This document shows, one piece after another, positions 23,316-44,844 of a stretch of DNA of 64,000 nucleotides. The translations under genes and the position numbers were made by a program. Source of the stretch: Bacteroidales bacterium (GTDB taxonomy: Bacteria; Bacteroidota; Bacteroidia; Bacteroidales; UBA3663); NCBI GenBank assembly GCA_045600485.1, contig JAZRXX010000033.1:2474-66473 (forward strand). Reading direction: 5' to 3'. Numbering within the stretch: position 1 is the stretch's first letter; every line of letters starts with the position of its first letter. The notes below the pieces were generated by a model. That model searched no databases. It was not told where the DNA came from and saw nothing but the letters and a program-made list of their open reading frames with translations.

Positions 23316-24611
23316 ATGGACTACAAATCCACTTTAGATTTTCTTTATGCTCAGCTCCCTGTGTTCGAAACGCAGGGAGCACATGCTTATAAGCCAGGAC
23401 TCGAGCGATGTGAAGCCATGGACGCAGTCCTGAATCATCCACACCGCAAGTTCAAGACCATTCATGTAGCAGGCACCAATGGCAAGGGGTCCTGCAGTCA
23501 CACATTGGCCAGCATTCTTCAAAGTGCAGGCTACAAGGTCGGTTTGTTCACCTCTCCCCACCTGCTTGATTTCGACGAACGAATCCGCGTGAATGGAGAA
23601 CCCATCGACCACCAGTACGTAACAAACTGGGTAGAACAGGAATATCCCAAACTGAAGGACGAGCAGCCCAGCTTCTTCGAGCTCGCTACCATGATGGCCT
23701 TTTGCTATTTTGCCCAACAGCAGGTAGATGTAGCTGTAATCGAAGTCGGTTTAGGTGGACGACTGGACAGTACCAACATCATCACCCCCGAAGTTTGTGT
23801 CATTACAAACATTTCGTTCGACCACATGCAGTTCCTCGGAGATACCTTACCACAGATAGCAGCCGAAAAGGCGGGCATCATGAAACCGGGGATTCCCTGC
23901 ATCATTGGAGAATGCAAGGACGACCGTGTACATTTCACCTTCCAGCAGAATGCACAATTGCATCAAGTGGAAGATCTTGTCTTTGCCGACACTCGTCCGC
24001 AGGTACTCTGGATTCGCAATTGCATTGACCACATAGAGTACGAGACACTCGCCGATGGCACTTTGCACTCCCCCCTCATGGGAGAATGTCAACCGCACAA
24101 TGCCAACACGATACTTTGGGCTGTGCGCAAGCTTCGTGAACGTGGTTTTAAGATTTCCGAGCAACAACTGCACGATGGCTTCCGTCTCGTCTTGAAGCAA
24201 ACTCATCTGCGTGGGCGTTGGGAGATTTTACAGGAGACCTCCCCTACCATAATCTGCGATACAGGCCACAACGAAGGTTGTTTCCAATATCTTGGCCCAC
24301 AGTTACATACTCTTGCAAGTAAGTCAGATAGCAAACTGCGCATAGTTTTCGGTATGGTACGAGACAAAGACATCAGCGCTGTTCTTAAATATCTGCCCAC
24401 ACAGGCACTTTATTACTTCTGTAATGCCGATACTCCACGCGCCCTGCCGGCAAAGGAACTCCAGCAATTGGCAGAACCTTTTGGAATCACAGGCAAGGCC
24501 TATTCTTCCATCACCGAAGCCTATCGTTCAGCACTTGCTGACTCATCTTCTTCGGACACGATCTTCATTGGTGGATCAAACTTTATTGTCTGCGAGGTCA
24601 TGAAGTTATAG
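23316..24611 (+). CDS. folC: Bifunctional folylpolyglutamate synthase / dihydrofolate synthase
   Basis: HVAGTNGKGS P-loop, SPHL and EVGLGGRLDSTN motifs of the Mur-ligase-like FolC. Confidence 0.9.
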   Translation: MDYKSTLDFLYAQLPVFETQGAHAYKPGLERCEAMDAVLNHPHRKFKTIHVAGTNGKGSCSHTLASILQSAGYKVGLFTSPHLLDFDERIRVNGEPIDHQYVTNWVEQEYPKLKDEQPSFFELATMMAFCYFAQQQVDVAVIEVGLGGRLDSTNIITPEVCVITNISFDHMQFLGDTLPQIAAEKAGIMKPGIPCIIGECKDDRVHFTFQQNAQLHQVEDLVFADTRPQVLWIRNCIDHIEYETLADGTLHSPLMGECQPHNANTILWAVRKLRERGFKISEQQLHDGFRLVLKQTHLRGRWEILQETSPTIICDTGHNEGCFQYLGPQLHTLASKSDSKLRIVFGMVRDKDISAVLKYLPTQALYYFCNADTPRALPAKELQQLAEPFGITGKAYSSITEAYRSALADSSSSDTIFIGGSNFIVCEVMKL

Positions 24612-24764
24612 GCAATTATACAATTTTGTACCTGAATAAAAAATTTCCAAAAACAACAATTTTACGATTAAACAAGATACAAAATGACACAAACTAACAA
24701 AAAAAGATATACATTTTCCGCAAAACAACAAATTTTTGACTGAATGTTTATTGTTTTCATTTTT

Positions 24765-25076
24765 GGACGAATTGATTATTCTATCTCAAAAAAAAGCCGT
24801 ACCTTTGCACCGTCAAACAATGAGACAAGCAGTCAACTTGGAGACGTTGTTTGATATAATTTCTTTATGCCCAAATGTATATCTAATTAGATTGTGTTAT
24901 TTTTGTTATCAATTAAGCCAAGTGTGTATTAAATGTTTAATCAATTGTGTATCCAAGTGTGTATTAAATGTTTATTGTAAGAATTTGATTTGGAAGTTTA
25001 TTATTAAGGTTTAGGTATTTATTCATGTACTAAAGTGTTTGGTCCGGTGCTCCCCCACAGAGCGCCGGCTTTTTTT
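24765..25076 (+). ncRNA. Candidate small transcription unit 1 (sRNA or small-peptide gene): promoter box, roughly 260 nt body, intrinsic terminator
   Basis: TACCTTTG -7 box at 24800-24807. Terminator: stem CCGGTGCTC (25044-25052) / GAGCGCCGG (25060-25068) plus T7 (25070-25076). The unit contains a 64-codon Cys-rich ORF (24820-25014) and a 22 bp direct repeat CCAAGTGTGTATTAAATGTTTA at 24918-24939 and 24953-24974. It is homologous to unit 2 on the opposite strand. Confidence 0.35.
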
Positions 25077-25140
25077 CTATAAGGCACTCACGCAGGGGAG
25101 ATATTCATTTGTCCACCTGGGGATCCAACCGTATTGGGCG

Positions 25141-25350
25141 AAAAAAAATCCGGCACTCTTCACAGAGCGCCGGACCAACCACTAATACTACTAACTAAAA
25201 TTGACGACCTTTTTTAATTAACTTCCAAATCACTATATACATGAAAAAATATTGGGCATTTTAAGAAAGCGCAAACAAATCTAACAACTTTCATTTGTTT
25301 GACGATGCAAAGATACATCCATTTTTCGAGTTACCTTTACCAATTCGTCC
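25141..25350 (-). ncRNA. Candidate small transcription unit 2, an inverted paralogue of unit 1
   Basis: Minus-strand TATCTTTG box at 25308-25315. Terminator: stem 25149-25158 / 25165-25174 followed by T8 on the minus strand (25141-25148). It shares GGACGAATTG, CTTTGCAYCGTCAAACAA, ATGCCCAA, GATTTGGAAGTT and GGTCCGGYGCTC blocks with unit 1. It contains a 26-codon ORF (25214-25294). Confidence 0.35.
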
Positions 25351-25438
25351 AAAACTTCTTCATTTACACTTTCTGGCAAAAAAGTAAGATTTTCCACCCT
25401 ATTTTTCCACCGAAAATGATTTGAATACAGCTGGAAAG

Positions 25439-25702
25439 TTATCGTCCCATGCCGCAACCTCCGCCAGATCTGAACATATCACGTTCCGAAACCACAAAGG
25501 ATGTGACCTGAGATTCATTGATTTCTCGAAGTTCTCGGCGACCTTCGATGTAATCCTTATACATATCTTCGACGTCGTTGCTATAGAAATTCTCGCAACC
25601 TTCGTCGCAATCTTCGAGAGAGCGTCGAACAATCTCTATTCTCTCCTCGCGCGTTGTATCCTTGATAAGTATAGACATTTTCAAACCTGTACTTTTAGTC
25701 AC
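25439..25702 (-). CDS. Small acidic hypothetical protein (79-87 aa) ending in SGGGCGMGR
   Basis: ORF immediately downstream of the XRE gene (5 nt gap). An alternative start lies at 25678 (MSILIKD). The protein is acidic, with a CDEGC motif and a Gly/Cys C-terminus. I recognise no family. Confidence 0.5.
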   Translation of the reverse strand: MTKSTGLKMSILIKDTTREERIEIVRRSLEDCDEGCENFYSNDVEDMYKDYIEGRRELREINESQVTSFVVSERDMFRSGGGCGMGR

Positions 25703-25707
25703 CGGTA

Positions 25708-26055
25708 TTACTTTTTTCTCTCCGAAGGACGAACCTTGCGAAGCGAGTCATCTGCACTGGAAGCAGATTGCTTAGCCTTGACATTACGACGGCGCACAGC
25801 CTTTGGCTTACGGCCATCGCCAGTGAAATCACCCTCGTGATCCTTAAGGAAGGCATCAAGCAAGTCCATTCGATCGAGCGCATTAAGCATCAGGATAATA
25901 GTTTCGAGCGAAGTATTGTGACCTGTTTCAGTCTGACTGATTGTAAAGAGAGAGAGGCCTGTTCTTTCGACCATGACGGTCTGCTTCATGTTCTGTGCTA
26001 GTCGAAGTTCTTTCATACGGGCACCAATGGCCTTCAAAACATCTTTTAATTCCAT
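25708..26055 (-). CDS. XRE-family helix-turn-helix transcriptional regulator with a basic C-terminal tail
   Basis: IGARMKELRLAQNMKQTVMVERTGLSLFTISQTETG is a Cro/C1-type HTH. The C-terminus is RKPKAVRRRNVKAKQ...RKK. Confidence 0.75.
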   Translation of the reverse strand: MELKDVLKAIGARMKELRLAQNMKQTVMVERTGLSLFTISQTETGHNTSLETIILMLNALDRMDLLDAFLKDHEGDFTGDGRKPKAVRRRNVKAKQSASSADDSLRKVRPSERKK

Positions 26056-27881: not shown

Positions 27882-27948
27882 ACGACGTTATAATATCACA
27901 ATTAGCAAACAACTCAAAACTGAAAACTGAAAACTCAAAACTCAAAAC

Positions 27949-28848
27949 TCAAAGCACATTCAAAACCTGCTCCTTGATCTGTTCCAGTTCATCTTTCATT
28001 TTCACAACAATACGTTGCATTTCAGCCTGATTGGATTTACTTCCAAGAGTATTGATCTCGCGGCCCATCTCCTGAGCGATGAAGCCCAACTTCTTACCCG
28101 TACCACCGGCATCCATCTCGGCATCCATAGTTTCCATGAAGTAATTGAGATGATTCTCCAGGCGATGTTTCTCCTCGTTGATGTCCAGTTTTTCGATGTA
28201 ATAGATCATCTCCTGCTCCAGACGGTTCTTGTCAAAATCAACAGGCAGTTGCTGTAGTTTGTCGAGGATATTCTGTCGAATCTTCTCAGTTCGCTCCTTT
28301 TCGTATGGCTCAACACTGGCAAGAAGGGCACGGATATTGGCAATCTTCTCCGAAAAGACACGATAGAGAGAGGCGCCCTCTTGCGTTCTGAAAGCAACAA
28401 AATTATCGATAGCTTCAGCCACAACCTTTGTCACGGCGTCGAGTTCCTCCTCTCCGATTTCTGCGCTTGCCACACTAACGGCATCGGGCATACGGACAAC
28501 AGTTTGAAGGAGAATGGCTGCGCTTTGAGCCTGAGTATCCAGCTGGACGATGCCTAAATCCTTGCGGATAGCATCCAACTGTTCGTAATAGGACTTAACA
28601 ACCGAAGCATTGATACGTGGAGCTTCATTGACAGTTTCACTCTCGACGGTCAACGTAAAATCGACCTTTCCACGTTGAAGAGCTTTTTGTATCATGGAGC
28701 GGAATTCCATTTCTCGCTCTCTGTATTGTTGTGCCGTCTTCATTCCCAAATCCAATTGTTTAGAGTTTAAGGAACGGATTTCGGCAGTAACTTTTTTGTT
28801 CAAGACTACGGCGCTTGCTTTGCCGTATCCTGTCATTGACTGTATCAT
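27949..28848 (-). CDS. yicC: YicC/YloC family stress-induced protein
   Basis: MIQSMTGYGKA...IRSLNSK N-terminus and C-terminal GKKLGFIAQEMGREINTLGSKS. Confidence 0.9.
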   Translation of the reverse strand: MIQSMTGYGKASAVVLNKKVTAEIRSLNSKQLDLGMKTAQQYREREMEFRSMIQKALQRGKVDFTLTVESETVNEAPRINASVVKSYYEQLDAIRKDLGIVQLDTQAQSAAILLQTVVRMPDAVSVASAEIGEEELDAVTKVVAEAIDNFVAFRTQEGASLYRVFSEKIANIRALLASVEPYEKERTEKIRQNILDKLQQLPVDFDKNRLEQEMIYYIEKLDINEEKHRLENHLNYFMETMDAEMDAGGTGKKLGFIAQEMGREINTLGSKSNQAEMQRIVVKMKDELEQIKEQVLNVL

Positions 28849-33694: not shown

Positions 33695-33737
33695 CTTGCA
33701 TTCATGCAAAGTTATCAGTTATTAGTTATCAGTTATT

Positions 33738-34385
33738 ATGGAAGAATTATACTTGTGGATCGAAGCCAACATGAGCTATAGTGTCATAACCTTCTTTATG
33801 GCAGTCGAGAGCTCGTTCATTCCTTTCCCCTCCGAAATCATCATCATTCCGGCCGCTTATATCGCTGCCACCAACGGGAGCCTGAGCCTTCCACTCATCA
33901 TCCTCTATGGTACCATCGGTGCCATTCTGGGTGCATTGGTGAACTATGGCCTTGCCTATTGGTTGGGCCGTCCGATCATCCATAAATTTGCCGATACGAA
34001 ATTGAGCCACATGCTGCTCATAGACCGTCCCGGTGTCGAGAAGGCCGAAAACTACTTTGCTGATCATGGTGCTGTTGGCACATTCGTCGGACGTCTCATT
34101 CCTGCCATTCGCCAGCTCATTTCCATTCCTGCTGGTTTGGCCAAAATGAATATCCTGAAGTTCCTTTTCTTCACCTTCTTGGGTGCAGGCATCTGGAACT
34201 CCATTCTGGCGGTATTGGGCTATACCCTCGGACAGACCTTGGGCAAAGAGACACTCATCGCCAAAGTGCAGGAATATAGTGACTATGTGAAGTATGGCAT
34301 CGCTGCTGTTGTTGCCATCGGATTCATCTATTATATATATTTAGTGGTTAAAGCAAATCGCGAAACTGCCAATCGAAACAAATGA
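33738..34385 (+). CDS. DedA family membrane protein
   Basis: ESSFIPFPSEIIIIPAAY and GRLIPAIRQLISIPAG are DedA/SNARE-associated motifs. The protein has multiple TM helices. Confidence 0.85.
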   Translation: MEELYLWIEANMSYSVITFFMAVESSFIPFPSEIIIIPAAYIAATNGSLSLPLIILYGTIGAILGALVNYGLAYWLGRPIIHKFADTKLSHMLLIDRPGVEKAENYFADHGAVGTFVGRLIPAIRQLISIPAGLAKMNILKFLFFTFLGAGIWNSILAVLGYTLGQTLGKETLIAKVQEYSDYVKYGIAAVVAIGFIYYIYLVVKANRETANRNK

Positions 34386-35723: not shown

Positions 35724-35855
35724 AGACGCAACAATAACTAATCCAGGAGTTAATAGTTATTAGTTTATAGTTAATAGTTATTAGTTAGGCTGTTTTGGTC
35801 GAAACTATAGTCAAATTTCAGTTCGAGGTTATTATAACTAATAACTAATAAATTA

Positions 35856-37223: not shown

Positions 37224-37438
37224 AACGATAAAAATTAAAAGTTAAAAATTAAAAATTAAAAAATATAAGTTATAAATTAAAACTTAAGTAACTATATACC
37301 CTTTGACCTCATTGTAAATAGTTAGGCACTCACGCAAAGTCCGCTATGGACGCAAAGGTGGCCTCGCAAAGGGAATATTATATATCAATGTCAAATCAAC
37401 TCGCAAGGTTGAAATTCTTTTGATAACGCACATACAAC

Positions 37439-44019: not shown

Positions 44020-44070
44020 TTTCTTATTGACTTAACTAATAACTATTAGCAAATAACTATTAACTGAAAA

Positions 44071-44844
44071 CTAAAAACTAAAAAACATTTCCCCCATTGC
44101 TTCGGCTGCTTCTGTTCGGCAAATGGAGAAGCTGGGGAAGTCGTTGACATCGATGATAAAGGGTTGTCCATTATCAAGAATCAGATCGACACCGAAAATT
44201 TCCAATCCCAACACCGACCTAACACGTTGCATTAAGTCCGCATATCGGGTATCTGGCCAGCAATGGTCGCCTACGGCATAAACCTTGACCAACGGGCCTT
44301 CGAGATGACGTGTGACGATAATGTCCGTATAACCATCGGCTGCAAGTTCTATGACCCGGCTGTCGGCTTGCAATGGAGTATCGACGCGAAGCACATCGCC
44401 GGGAGTGACACCCCTTGGATGCATGGCCTTGACCCATCCGGGCAACAACTGCTGCAAATCCGGTTCACACTGGAACATCCGGTCTTCTGCCGGTTCGTAG
44501 CTCCAGAATGGAACAACAGGCAATCCCGAAACCTGAAGCATCTCCAAGGTCGTAGATCGGCTTTGAACCGTAACTTGCACAGACGAAGGCCGATTCAGGA
44601 CCACTCCCCCTTGCTGTTCAAGTTTCTGCAAAAGAAGAAGACTCTTCCACCGACGAGCCATACTGATGATGCAACGGCAGGAAGCAAGTTCCGCTGTATG
44701 CGCAGGCAGCTCCTCTTCGCGAATGGTGCAAACCTCTTGACCAGCATCACGCAAGCAATGGGCAACCGCCTCCAGAATGGCTGCATCTTTTGGAACATTT
44801 CCATTGGGCGAATATTCCGTTGCACGATAAATCAAGCCAACCAT
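44071..44844 (-). CDS. ATP-grasp-like protein, possibly inositol-phosphate-kinase (ITPK1)-like
   Basis: 257 aa. The C-terminal GVDLILDNGQPFIIDVNDFPSF resembles the Mg-ATP-binding strand of ATP-grasp enzymes. By memory it also resembles the xIDxNxFPG motif of inositol 1,3,4-trisphosphate 5/6-kinases. Confidence 0.45.
   Translation of the reverse strand: MVGLIYRATEYSPNGNVPKDAAILEAVAHCLRDAGQEVCTIREEELPAHTAELASCRCIISMARRWKSLLLLQKLEQQGGVVLNRPSSVQVTVQSRSTTLEMLQVSGLPVVPFWSYEPAEDRMFQCEPDLQQLLPGWVKAMHPRGVTPGDVLRVDTPLQADSRVIELAADGYTDIIVTRHLEGPLVKVYAVGDHCWPDTRYADLMQRVRSVLGLEIFGVDLILDNGQPFIIDVNDFPSFSICRTEAAEAMGEMFFSF

Follow-up and report, generated by a model that had tools for sequence, protein, structure and literature searches.

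Two convergent intergenic units of a Bacteroidales genome as probable members of a lineage-restricted small RNA family

Post-transcriptional control in the Bacteroidales is, to our knowledge, known almost solely from Bacteroides thetaiotaomicron. In this organism the paralogous small RNAs (sRNAs) FopS and GibS are expressed from canonical promoters, and their single-stranded 5' seed—GUGUUUUUCAUAGUAUUAG in the published oligos—pairs with susC-type mRNAs beside their start codon, so that translation is blocked (PMC11697453). In polysaccharide utilisation operons, it is at the first gene that FopS blocks the initiation of translation, and the repression exerted by both sRNAs is counteracted by the RRM protein RbpB (PMC11697453). 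The locus described here lies in a window of 64,000 nucleotides from a Bacteroidales bacterium (genome G000, contig C33, positions 2474-66473; assembly of 3.48 Mb in 108 contigs, 46% G+C). It consists of two homologous, convergent units, unit 1 on the plus strand at 24765-25076 and unit 2 on the minus strand at 25141-25350. These units are likely to be independent, non-coding, trans-acting sRNA genes that belong to a lineage-restricted family, many members of which would be induced together, and their pairing is likely to be incidental. Unit 2 is the canonical member, while unit 1 is a diverged sister paralog. The family itself is most likely an uncatalogued, multi-copy sRNA family of one genus of the order, whose members are uncultured and come from rumen and gut.

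The sequence features listed in a preliminary description of the locus were all recovered. Each unit opens with GGACGAATTG (24765-24774 on the plus strand and 25350-25341 on the minus strand), which is followed 25 nt later by a TAnnTTTG box and then by GCAyCGTCAAACAA(A)TGA. The blocks ATGCCCAA and GATTTGGAAGTT are common to both units (an 18-nt arm, 94% complementary), and each unit ends in a terminator built of TTGGTCCGGyGCTC, loop, stem and T-run, with 64 nt between the two terminators. Box and promoter in combination were found at exactly two places in the window and at none in 100 shuffles. A longer form of the upstream box, TTTTGGACGAATTG, is found in both units, in the orthologs of both units in the closest species that has them (G013), and at locus L031 in the form GGACGATTTG. 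Coordinates of all features are given in Table 1.

Further members were sought by BLAST, by nhmmer and with a covariance model built from four copies. As the preliminary description had anticipated, such members exist both in this genome, which holds 6-7 family copies, and in related genomes. Unit 2 scores 115.6 and 113.3 bits with two covariance models (R1 and R2, respectively) and reaches 8e-26 with nhmmer; unit 1 was detected neither by nhmmer nor by either covariance model. The genus was compared across 39 species, which constitute the entire GTDB family sampled. Strong matches were found in six of these species, that of the present genome included, with 2-7 copies each, and weak matches in three more. 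Among 16 genomes from other families of the order there was a single weak match. A pattern scan of GTDB representatives returned only uncultured Bacteroidales metagenome-assembled genomes (MAGs), some of them labelled as rumen, plus three chance matches that were rejected by the model, and a scan of metagenomes returned five contigs, four of which carry true members. The copy numbers are lower bounds, because the genomes are incomplete MAGs (63-96% complete). One diverged, promoterless member of this genome resembles a 3' untranslated region (3'-UTR) type of sRNA; its counterpart in G013 lies at C12:152510-152617 on the minus strand.

The neighbours of each paralog are kept between species, so that the loci are syntenic, while no neighbouring gene family shared across all paralog loci was found. 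Neighbours that are conserved for each paralog and differ among paralogs indicate that the copies are old and fixed rather than mobile. The possibility raised in the preliminary description, that the similarity belongs to a degraded mobile element, is thus contradicted by paralogs that stand at separate loci and are syntenic between species. A mobile repeat of the miniature inverted-repeat transposable element or repetitive extragenic palindromic type was likewise considered and rejected, given the same synteny and the lack of any long inverted repeat other than the one that the two units form.

A model-based alignment of 22 sequences underlies the proposed layout of the RNA. The promoter, which is of the standard housekeeping type of Bacteroidota and in most members includes a TTTGGA element of the -33 type, is followed by a fast-evolving 5' part of 15-95 nt, often a hairpin. 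Next come motif A, GCCCAAAUGU(U)UUUUCAU, in which GCCCAAAUGU is often followed by UUUUUCAUUAUAUA, and a small, weakly supported hairpin of four pairs closed by GAYU/GGUC (89% paired). Motif B, GGUCGUCAGUUUUAGUUAGUAGUAUUAGUGGUUGG, is 35 nt long and almost invariant, and the RNA ends in a terminator hairpin with a GUGA loop and a conserved UGUGAA loop region. Covariation analysis, a check proposed in the preliminary description, revealed strong compensatory change in this terminator: all 11 modelled pairs have changes on both sides and 95.8% of cells are paired. These values were attained in 0 of 500 shuffles, and slid controls gave 30-45% pairing. No pairing is predicted by RNAalifold for motifs A and B.

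Selection was assessed by aligning five ortholog pairs between this genome and G013. Four of these pairs (unit 2 and the members on contigs C74, C79 and C54) show no or hardly any differences between motif A and the end of the terminator. The few changes fall mostly in the terminator stem, and the C54 pair differs also in and near motif A. The 5' parts carry many substitutions and indels between orthologs, most strongly in unit 2 and the C79 member, and the DNA that flanks unit 2 is 79-84% identical to that of G013. The near identity of the 3' stretch, compared with these flanks, points to strong constraint on the 3' two-thirds of the RNA, including its AU-rich linker.

Period-7 tandem arrays (AACTCAA, TAACTAA, AGTTATT, AAAACTG and others) occur throughout the genome, some of them as inverted pairs, and Tandem Repeats Finder at a low threshold makes 444 period-7 calls genome-wide. 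Motif B itself resembles four degenerate heptads. In a genome so full of tandem and dispersed intergenic repeats, the units could be non-functional leftovers, either decayed repeats or copies of a promoter-terminator cassette; this explanation would suit the heptad-like motif B, as would unit 1, with its roughly neutral rate of change and its fresh 22-nt duplication. It is nevertheless improbable, since the 3' 110 nt of four members are identical or nearly identical between species where flanks differ by ~20%, the terminator is kept intact by compensatory changes, and promoters are kept at syntenic loci in six species.

The open reading frames (ORFs) reported in the preliminary description, of 64 aa in unit 1 and 26 aa in unit 2, do exist, and as it suggested they are not conserved: their presence, length and frame vary among orthologs as well as paralogs. 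The ORF of unit 1 has 26 aa in G013, with the first differences at second codon positions, and that of unit 2 has no counterpart in the G013 ortholog, where its start is lost. It might still be proposed that the units encode very small proteins from the AUG of motif A or from a 5' AUG, as many members have an AUG within CCCAAAUGU followed by a short hydrophobic ORF (MFFIIYLTEYLF, MFFQYIRLIKLRVVSFS and MSQYRILTF). However, ORFs that begin at the motif A AUG span 3-17 codons and share nothing beyond MFF (the shortest were translated by hand), unit 2 lacks this AUG altogether, and the C54 member contains no ORF of >=8 aa. Motif B, the most conserved stretch, lies outside the ORFs or in varying frames. 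A conserved peptide is therefore very unlikely on comparative grounds, and the proposal that the units encode very small proteins is given little credence. With more members found, covariation in the terminator and no conserved ORF, the two units are better described, as was originally favoured, as homologous, self-contained promoter-to-terminator units of an sRNA family than as peptide genes. The sequence features generally expected of an intergenic, trans-acting sRNA gene are present: a promoter of its own, a compensated terminator, conservation across species and no conserved ORF.

The 5' similarity between the units, to which the preliminary description had drawn attention, is present in both, but it is largely a general promoter consensus and so is no mark of the family. 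The sequence TAnnTTTGCAyCGTCAAACAA has 26 matches genome-wide at <=2 mismatches, many of which can be seen to precede an ORF start closely, and is a general extended promoter consensus of this genome; the shared 5' block is accordingly not family-specific. A fuller consensus, TAyCTTTGCAyCGTCAAA(C)AA, is seen for example at C61:45415, C74:14898, C79:12583 and C95:20547. Such an extended consensus can mimic homology between unrelated 5' regions. The 5' ends of FopS have been mapped, with the start G five nt after TTTG (oligo table, PMC11697453). The same spacing from TTTG to the start G is found in FopS loci of viral contigs and in the FopS genes of this genome. By analogy with these promoters, the RNAs probably start ~47 nt past GGACGAATTG and not at GGACGAATTG itself, and the two transcripts would have the ends given in Table 1.

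Whether the new RNAs belong to FopS or GibS, of all described sRNAs the nearest to them, was addressed with the Rfam 15 models for FopS (RF04319, gathering threshold 56 bits) and GibS (RF04182, gathering threshold 115 bits). A scan of the entire window at the gathering thresholds gave no match, and a permissive scan of the locus gave chance-level matches only. The FopS model had no match over 24500-25600 at E<=10, and family loci L032, L036 and L038 gave none at E<=1, while known FopS loci of viral contigs scored 77.8 and 75.4 bits as positive controls in the same run. The GibS model matched neither the window region nor the family loci. Searched across the whole genome, RF04319 identified three true FopS genes only. 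An nhmmer profile of 34 FopS sequences matched the same three loci and no member of the new family, and a hidden Markov model of the FopS seed alone gave local scores on the new family no better than on shuffles. Membership of FopS/GibS was rejected, since these models fail on the family where true FopS genes pass, and the RNAs are filed as a separate family.

The family nevertheless has short functional words in common with FopS. The word UGUUUUUCAU lies in motif A of several members, with AUUUUUUCAU in unit 2, and UAGUAUUAG lies in motif B of nearly all members. Both UGUUUUUCAU and UAGUAUUAG are words of the FopS/GibS seed and occur in the same order, but ~50-60 nt apart. Judged from sequence, the shared words could stem from a remote common ancestor or from convergence of both families on targets of one kind. 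Like FopS and GibS, the family consists of multi-copy intergenic Bacteroidales sRNAs with a conserved stretch for which no consensus pairing is predicted. As for FopS, a canonical TAnnTTTG promoter and an intrinsic terminator are present, and one member is of the 3'-UTR type (C43:34082 here, FopS-14 in B. thetaiotaomicron). In contrast to FopS RNAs of 65-75 nt, however, those of the family are predicted to be 125-265 nt long, and their seed-like words are internal and split, whereas the FopS seed forms the very 5' end at the start site. Motif B, a CCCAAA prefix and the terminator with a GUGA loop are specific to the new family. The two also differ in range, with the family in 6-9 of the 39 species of the genus and FopS above the Rfam cut-off in all 39, at 2-6 copies each. 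Proteins with an RRM_1 domain (RbpB-type) were found in 0 of the 39 genomes of the genus, with B. thetaiotaomicron positive for both RRM_1 and FopS as a control. The seed GTGTTTTTCATAGTATTAG was also seen in >109 viral or prophage contigs (IMG/VR, L089-L168), usually within complete FopS-like genes with promoter and terminator.

The ortholog of unit 1 was located at G013:C38:126254-126475, with 75-79% identity. It retains the upstream box and promoter, the GATTTGGAAGT block, the terminator and the 5' hairpin, in which one U·G pair is replaced by U-A, and it lacks the 22-nt duplication. The ortholog of unit 2 lies at G013:C34:60941-61063, where a protein gene occupies the position of unit 1. 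The two orthologs thus stand on different contigs with different neighbours, which makes the convergent arrangement species-specific; as far as this comparison goes, the tail-to-tail pairing would be a rearrangement without functional meaning. The preliminary description had been reminded of a type I toxin-antitoxin locus or a convergent sRNA pair, and its layout does resemble such loci, with two short convergent transcription units 64 nt apart and small ORFs that are Cys-rich or hydrophobic (64 aa and 26 aa). Under this explanation the RNAs would be mutually antisense, or one of them would encode a small toxic peptide. The species-specific pairing argues against both versions. Furthermore, the RNAs are homologous rather than complementary, each has a strong terminator of its own and the terminators do not overlap, no toxin ORF is conserved between this genome and G013, and the other members of the family stand alone. 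This explanation has next to no probability and is rejected.

In the proposed mechanism, the exposed conserved stretches of the RNA would base-pair with A/U-rich regions around the start codons of mRNAs, and this would block translation initiation as in FopS and GibS of B. thetaiotaomicron. The gene start seen most often in this genome is AUGAAAAA, and the word UUUUUCAU is exactly complementary to it; AUGAAAAA (as ATGAAAAA) occurs in 184 of 3087 start-region windows, with start sites taken from crude ORF calls, and 3 times in gene bodies. This antisense relation parallels FopS and fits a block of translation initiation. The motif A region of unit 2 includes UUUUUUCAU, which is complementary to AUGAAAAAA. 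Start regions are also enriched in words that can pair with motif B, but such regions are A/U-rich anyway. With RNAduplex, 241 sites at <=-14 kcal/mol were found in 7951 candidate start regions, likewise taken from crude ORF calls, compared with 52-185 for five shuffled seeds. By analogy with FopS, repression of translation initiation by base pairing would be the best-supported model.

Several points weigh against these RNAs being functional, base-pairing sRNAs. Both the transcripts and their ends are predicted. Motif B has been lost from unit 1, whose divergence from its ortholog (75-79% identity) is roughly neutral; the unit may therefore be non-functional, and may be decaying or losing function. 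Computed probabilities that motifs A and B are unpaired are just 0.4-0.6 in the four RNAs concerned. Neither for the motif A region nor for motif B was a long complementary site found in the genome, and no convincing target emerged. The duplex sites in start regions exceed those for shuffled seeds just 1.3- to 4.6-fold, and base composition accounts for part of the complementarity to A/U-rich start regions. Finally, motif A (CCCAAAUGU) lacks a complementary partner, and could instead be where a protein binds.

This last point leads to the main rival mechanism, in which the RNAs serve as protein sponges or are protein-bound: CCCAAAUGU, and perhaps the heptad-like motif B, would bind and titrate an RNA-binding protein in the manner of CsrB/RsmZ. 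The ~12% of the genome that lies beyond long ORFs holds 22 copies of the 9-mer CCCAAATGT and the long ORFs hold 13, whereas control 9-mers occur 0-6 times in intergenic DNA. Per base, CCCAAATGT is ~12-fold enriched in intergenic DNA. At least 10 other promoter-terminator mini-units carry (G/A)CCCAAAUGU, often followed by UUUUUCAUUAUAU, without motif B, and several of them hold 2-5 copies or near-copies of the 9-mer within one RNA (e.g. C61:45321, C20:26088 and C84:173/204). Counts of CCCAAATGT are high also in some other species of the genus; in 400 genomes from other families of the order, CCCAAATGTTTTTYMWT stays at background level. Because no sequence complementary to CCCAAATGT was found in the genome, the 9-mer may be bound by a protein or serve as a site of processing. 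A sponge would also account for the AU-rich linker, which is 100% conserved between species, beyond the needs of a short seed. On the other hand, there is no known candidate protein, RbpB-type RRM proteins are absent as described above, the members of the family carry one copy of CCCAAAUGU each, and unit 2 holds the variant CCCAAUAUU. Sequestration of a protein is thus the less likely mechanism, and translational repression by base pairing remains the preferred one.

Regulation of the family may also be shared. Twelve of 19 members have one or two forward copies of GGTGGAAAA upstream, 24 sites in all compared with 0.68 in shuffles. In most cases two copies stand 13 bp apart (-96/-83, -98/-85 or, in a shifted form, -66/-53), and in a few cases 19-21 bp apart (-85/-66). 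The repeats of unit 2 lie at -96 and -83 from the -7 box, and this tandem site is the only one in the genome. That the upstream position is conserved and the orientation always the same suggests a DNA-binding regulator, for which GGTGGAAAA would be a candidate site, and many members are probably induced together by a regulator that reads two GGTGGAAAA repeats ~90-105 bp upstream of the start site. As a genome-wide mark of a regulon, GGTGGAAAA was rejected, because its 34 occurrences in the genome fall mostly in coding DNA. Members without GGTGGAAAA often carry, as seen by eye, CACAATTTTTTAGCA or CGTACAATTTT 60-120 nt upstream of the promoter. Words of this type occur at L031, L032, L040, L039, L049, L052 and L053 and in unit 1 (window positions ~24620-24680), and may represent a second shared upstream element.

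This arrangement can be compared with that of the CiaR-dependent small RNAs (csRNAs) of Streptococcus. Several csRNA paralogs are present in each genome, each with its own promoter and terminator and with stretches complementary to translation start regions, and they are co-regulated by one response regulator, whose direct-repeat site precedes each of the genes. The present family is alike in its paralogy, in the promoter and terminator of each member, in its start-region complementarity and in its upstream direct repeats. It differs in that phylum and sequences are unrelated, the repeats lie much farther upstream (~-90 to -105 from the start site), and just 12 of 19 members have them. A wider scheme can be imagined for this genus without RRM proteins, in which FopS makes up just one part of a more extensive RNA network. 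Another, lineage-specific network, of at least 12 sRNA genes per genome, would have its CCCAAAUGU bound by a protein that stands in for RbpB, and the subfamily described here would be induced as a regulon via an activator at GGTGGAAAA-N4-GGTGGAAAA, placed at a constant distance upstream. This scheme is speculative and its truth doubtful.

On either side, the locus is flanked by the protein-coding genes listed in Table 1. In G013, at least the helix-turn-helix (HTH) gene occupies the same position. There is no terminator between the HTH and acidic-protein genes and unit 2, so their transcript may end at the unit 2 terminator.

Table 1. Features of the locus and related loci. Positions without a contig name refer to the window; names beginning with C denote contigs of this genome.
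Feature	Position	Strand	Remarks
Unit 1 upstream box TTTTGGACGAATTG	24761..24774	+	resembles the TTTGGA -33-type element of other members, but ~14 nt farther from the -7 box
Unit 1 -7 box TACCTTTG	24800..24807	+	Bacteroidota TAnnTTTG consensus
Unit 1 predicted RNA	24812..25076	+	~265 nt; diverged sister paralog; 5' end by FopS analogy
Unit 1 motif A (GCCCAAATGT)	24869..24878	+	
Unit 1, two exact 22-nt direct copies	24918-24939 and 24953-24974	+	specific to this genome
Unit 1 degenerate motif B counterpart (AAGGTTTAGGTATTTATTCATGTACTAAAGTGTTTGG)	25006..25043	+	~22/37 positions match unit 2 motif B (manual count)
Unit 1 intrinsic terminator	25044..25076	+	9-bp stem, 7-nt loop (not GUGA), seven T
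Unit 2 predicted RNA	25303..25141	-	~163 nt; clear family member (covariance models, nhmmer); 5' end by FopS analogy
Unit 2 intrinsic terminator	25141..25176	-	13-pair stem, GUGA tetraloop, eight T
Unit 2 motif B (GGTCGTCAATTTTAGTTAGTAGTATTAGTGGTTGG)	25175..25209	-	near-invariant family core; unpaired by RNAalifold
Unit 2 motif A region (GCCCAATATTTTTTCATGTATATAG)	25233..25257	-	100% identical in G013 ortholog
Unit 2 -7 box TATCTTTG	25308..25315	-	TAnnTTTG type
Unit 2 upstream box TTTTGGACGAATTG	25341..25354	-	
Two direct repeats GGTGGAAAA upstream of unit 2	25403-25411 and 25390-25398	-	candidate regulator site, just past the acidic-protein gene stop
Mur-ligase/FolC-type gene	23316-24611	+	flanks locus on unit 1 side
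Acidic protein gene, 80 aa	25439-25681	-	no Pfam match; upstream of unit 2, same strand
HTH_3 (XRE-type) regulator gene	25708-26055	-	directly upstream of acidic-protein gene
Family member	C74:4560-4685		this genome
Family member	C54:31155-31269		this genome
Family member	C79:12428-12538		this genome
Family member, diverged, promoterless, 3'-UTR-type	C43:34082-34191	-	directly after protein-gene stop codon
Diverged family copy	C79:317-412		this genome
True FopS gene	C18:63442-63510	-	RF04319, 70.2 bits
True FopS gene	C43:121770-121839	+	RF04319, 57.9 bits
True FopS gene	C58:4186-4260	-	RF04319, 57.2 bits
Motif A mini-units	C64:6952, C103:19609, C68:10702, C74:18616, C89:36916, C89:38483, C52:27933, C84:173/204, C20:26088, C61:45321		
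Period-7 arrays in window	27911-27953, 33710-33738, 35748-35787, 37229-37287, 44033-44084		

Taken as a whole, the family is genuine and lineage-restricted, and its members are most likely sRNAs of a kind already known. Its practical value is modest, and lies in better non-coding annotation of rumen MAGs and in a defined sequence set from which an Rfam family could later be built. For the biology of the order, it adds a new paralogous sRNA family from an uncultured rumen and gut lineage, with short words of the FopS and GibS seed in a different architecture. The same upstream direct repeats in many of its members offer a candidate shared control site. In addition, FopS is universal in the genus and yet RRM_1 is absent from it, which bears on the reach of the FopS-RbpB model.

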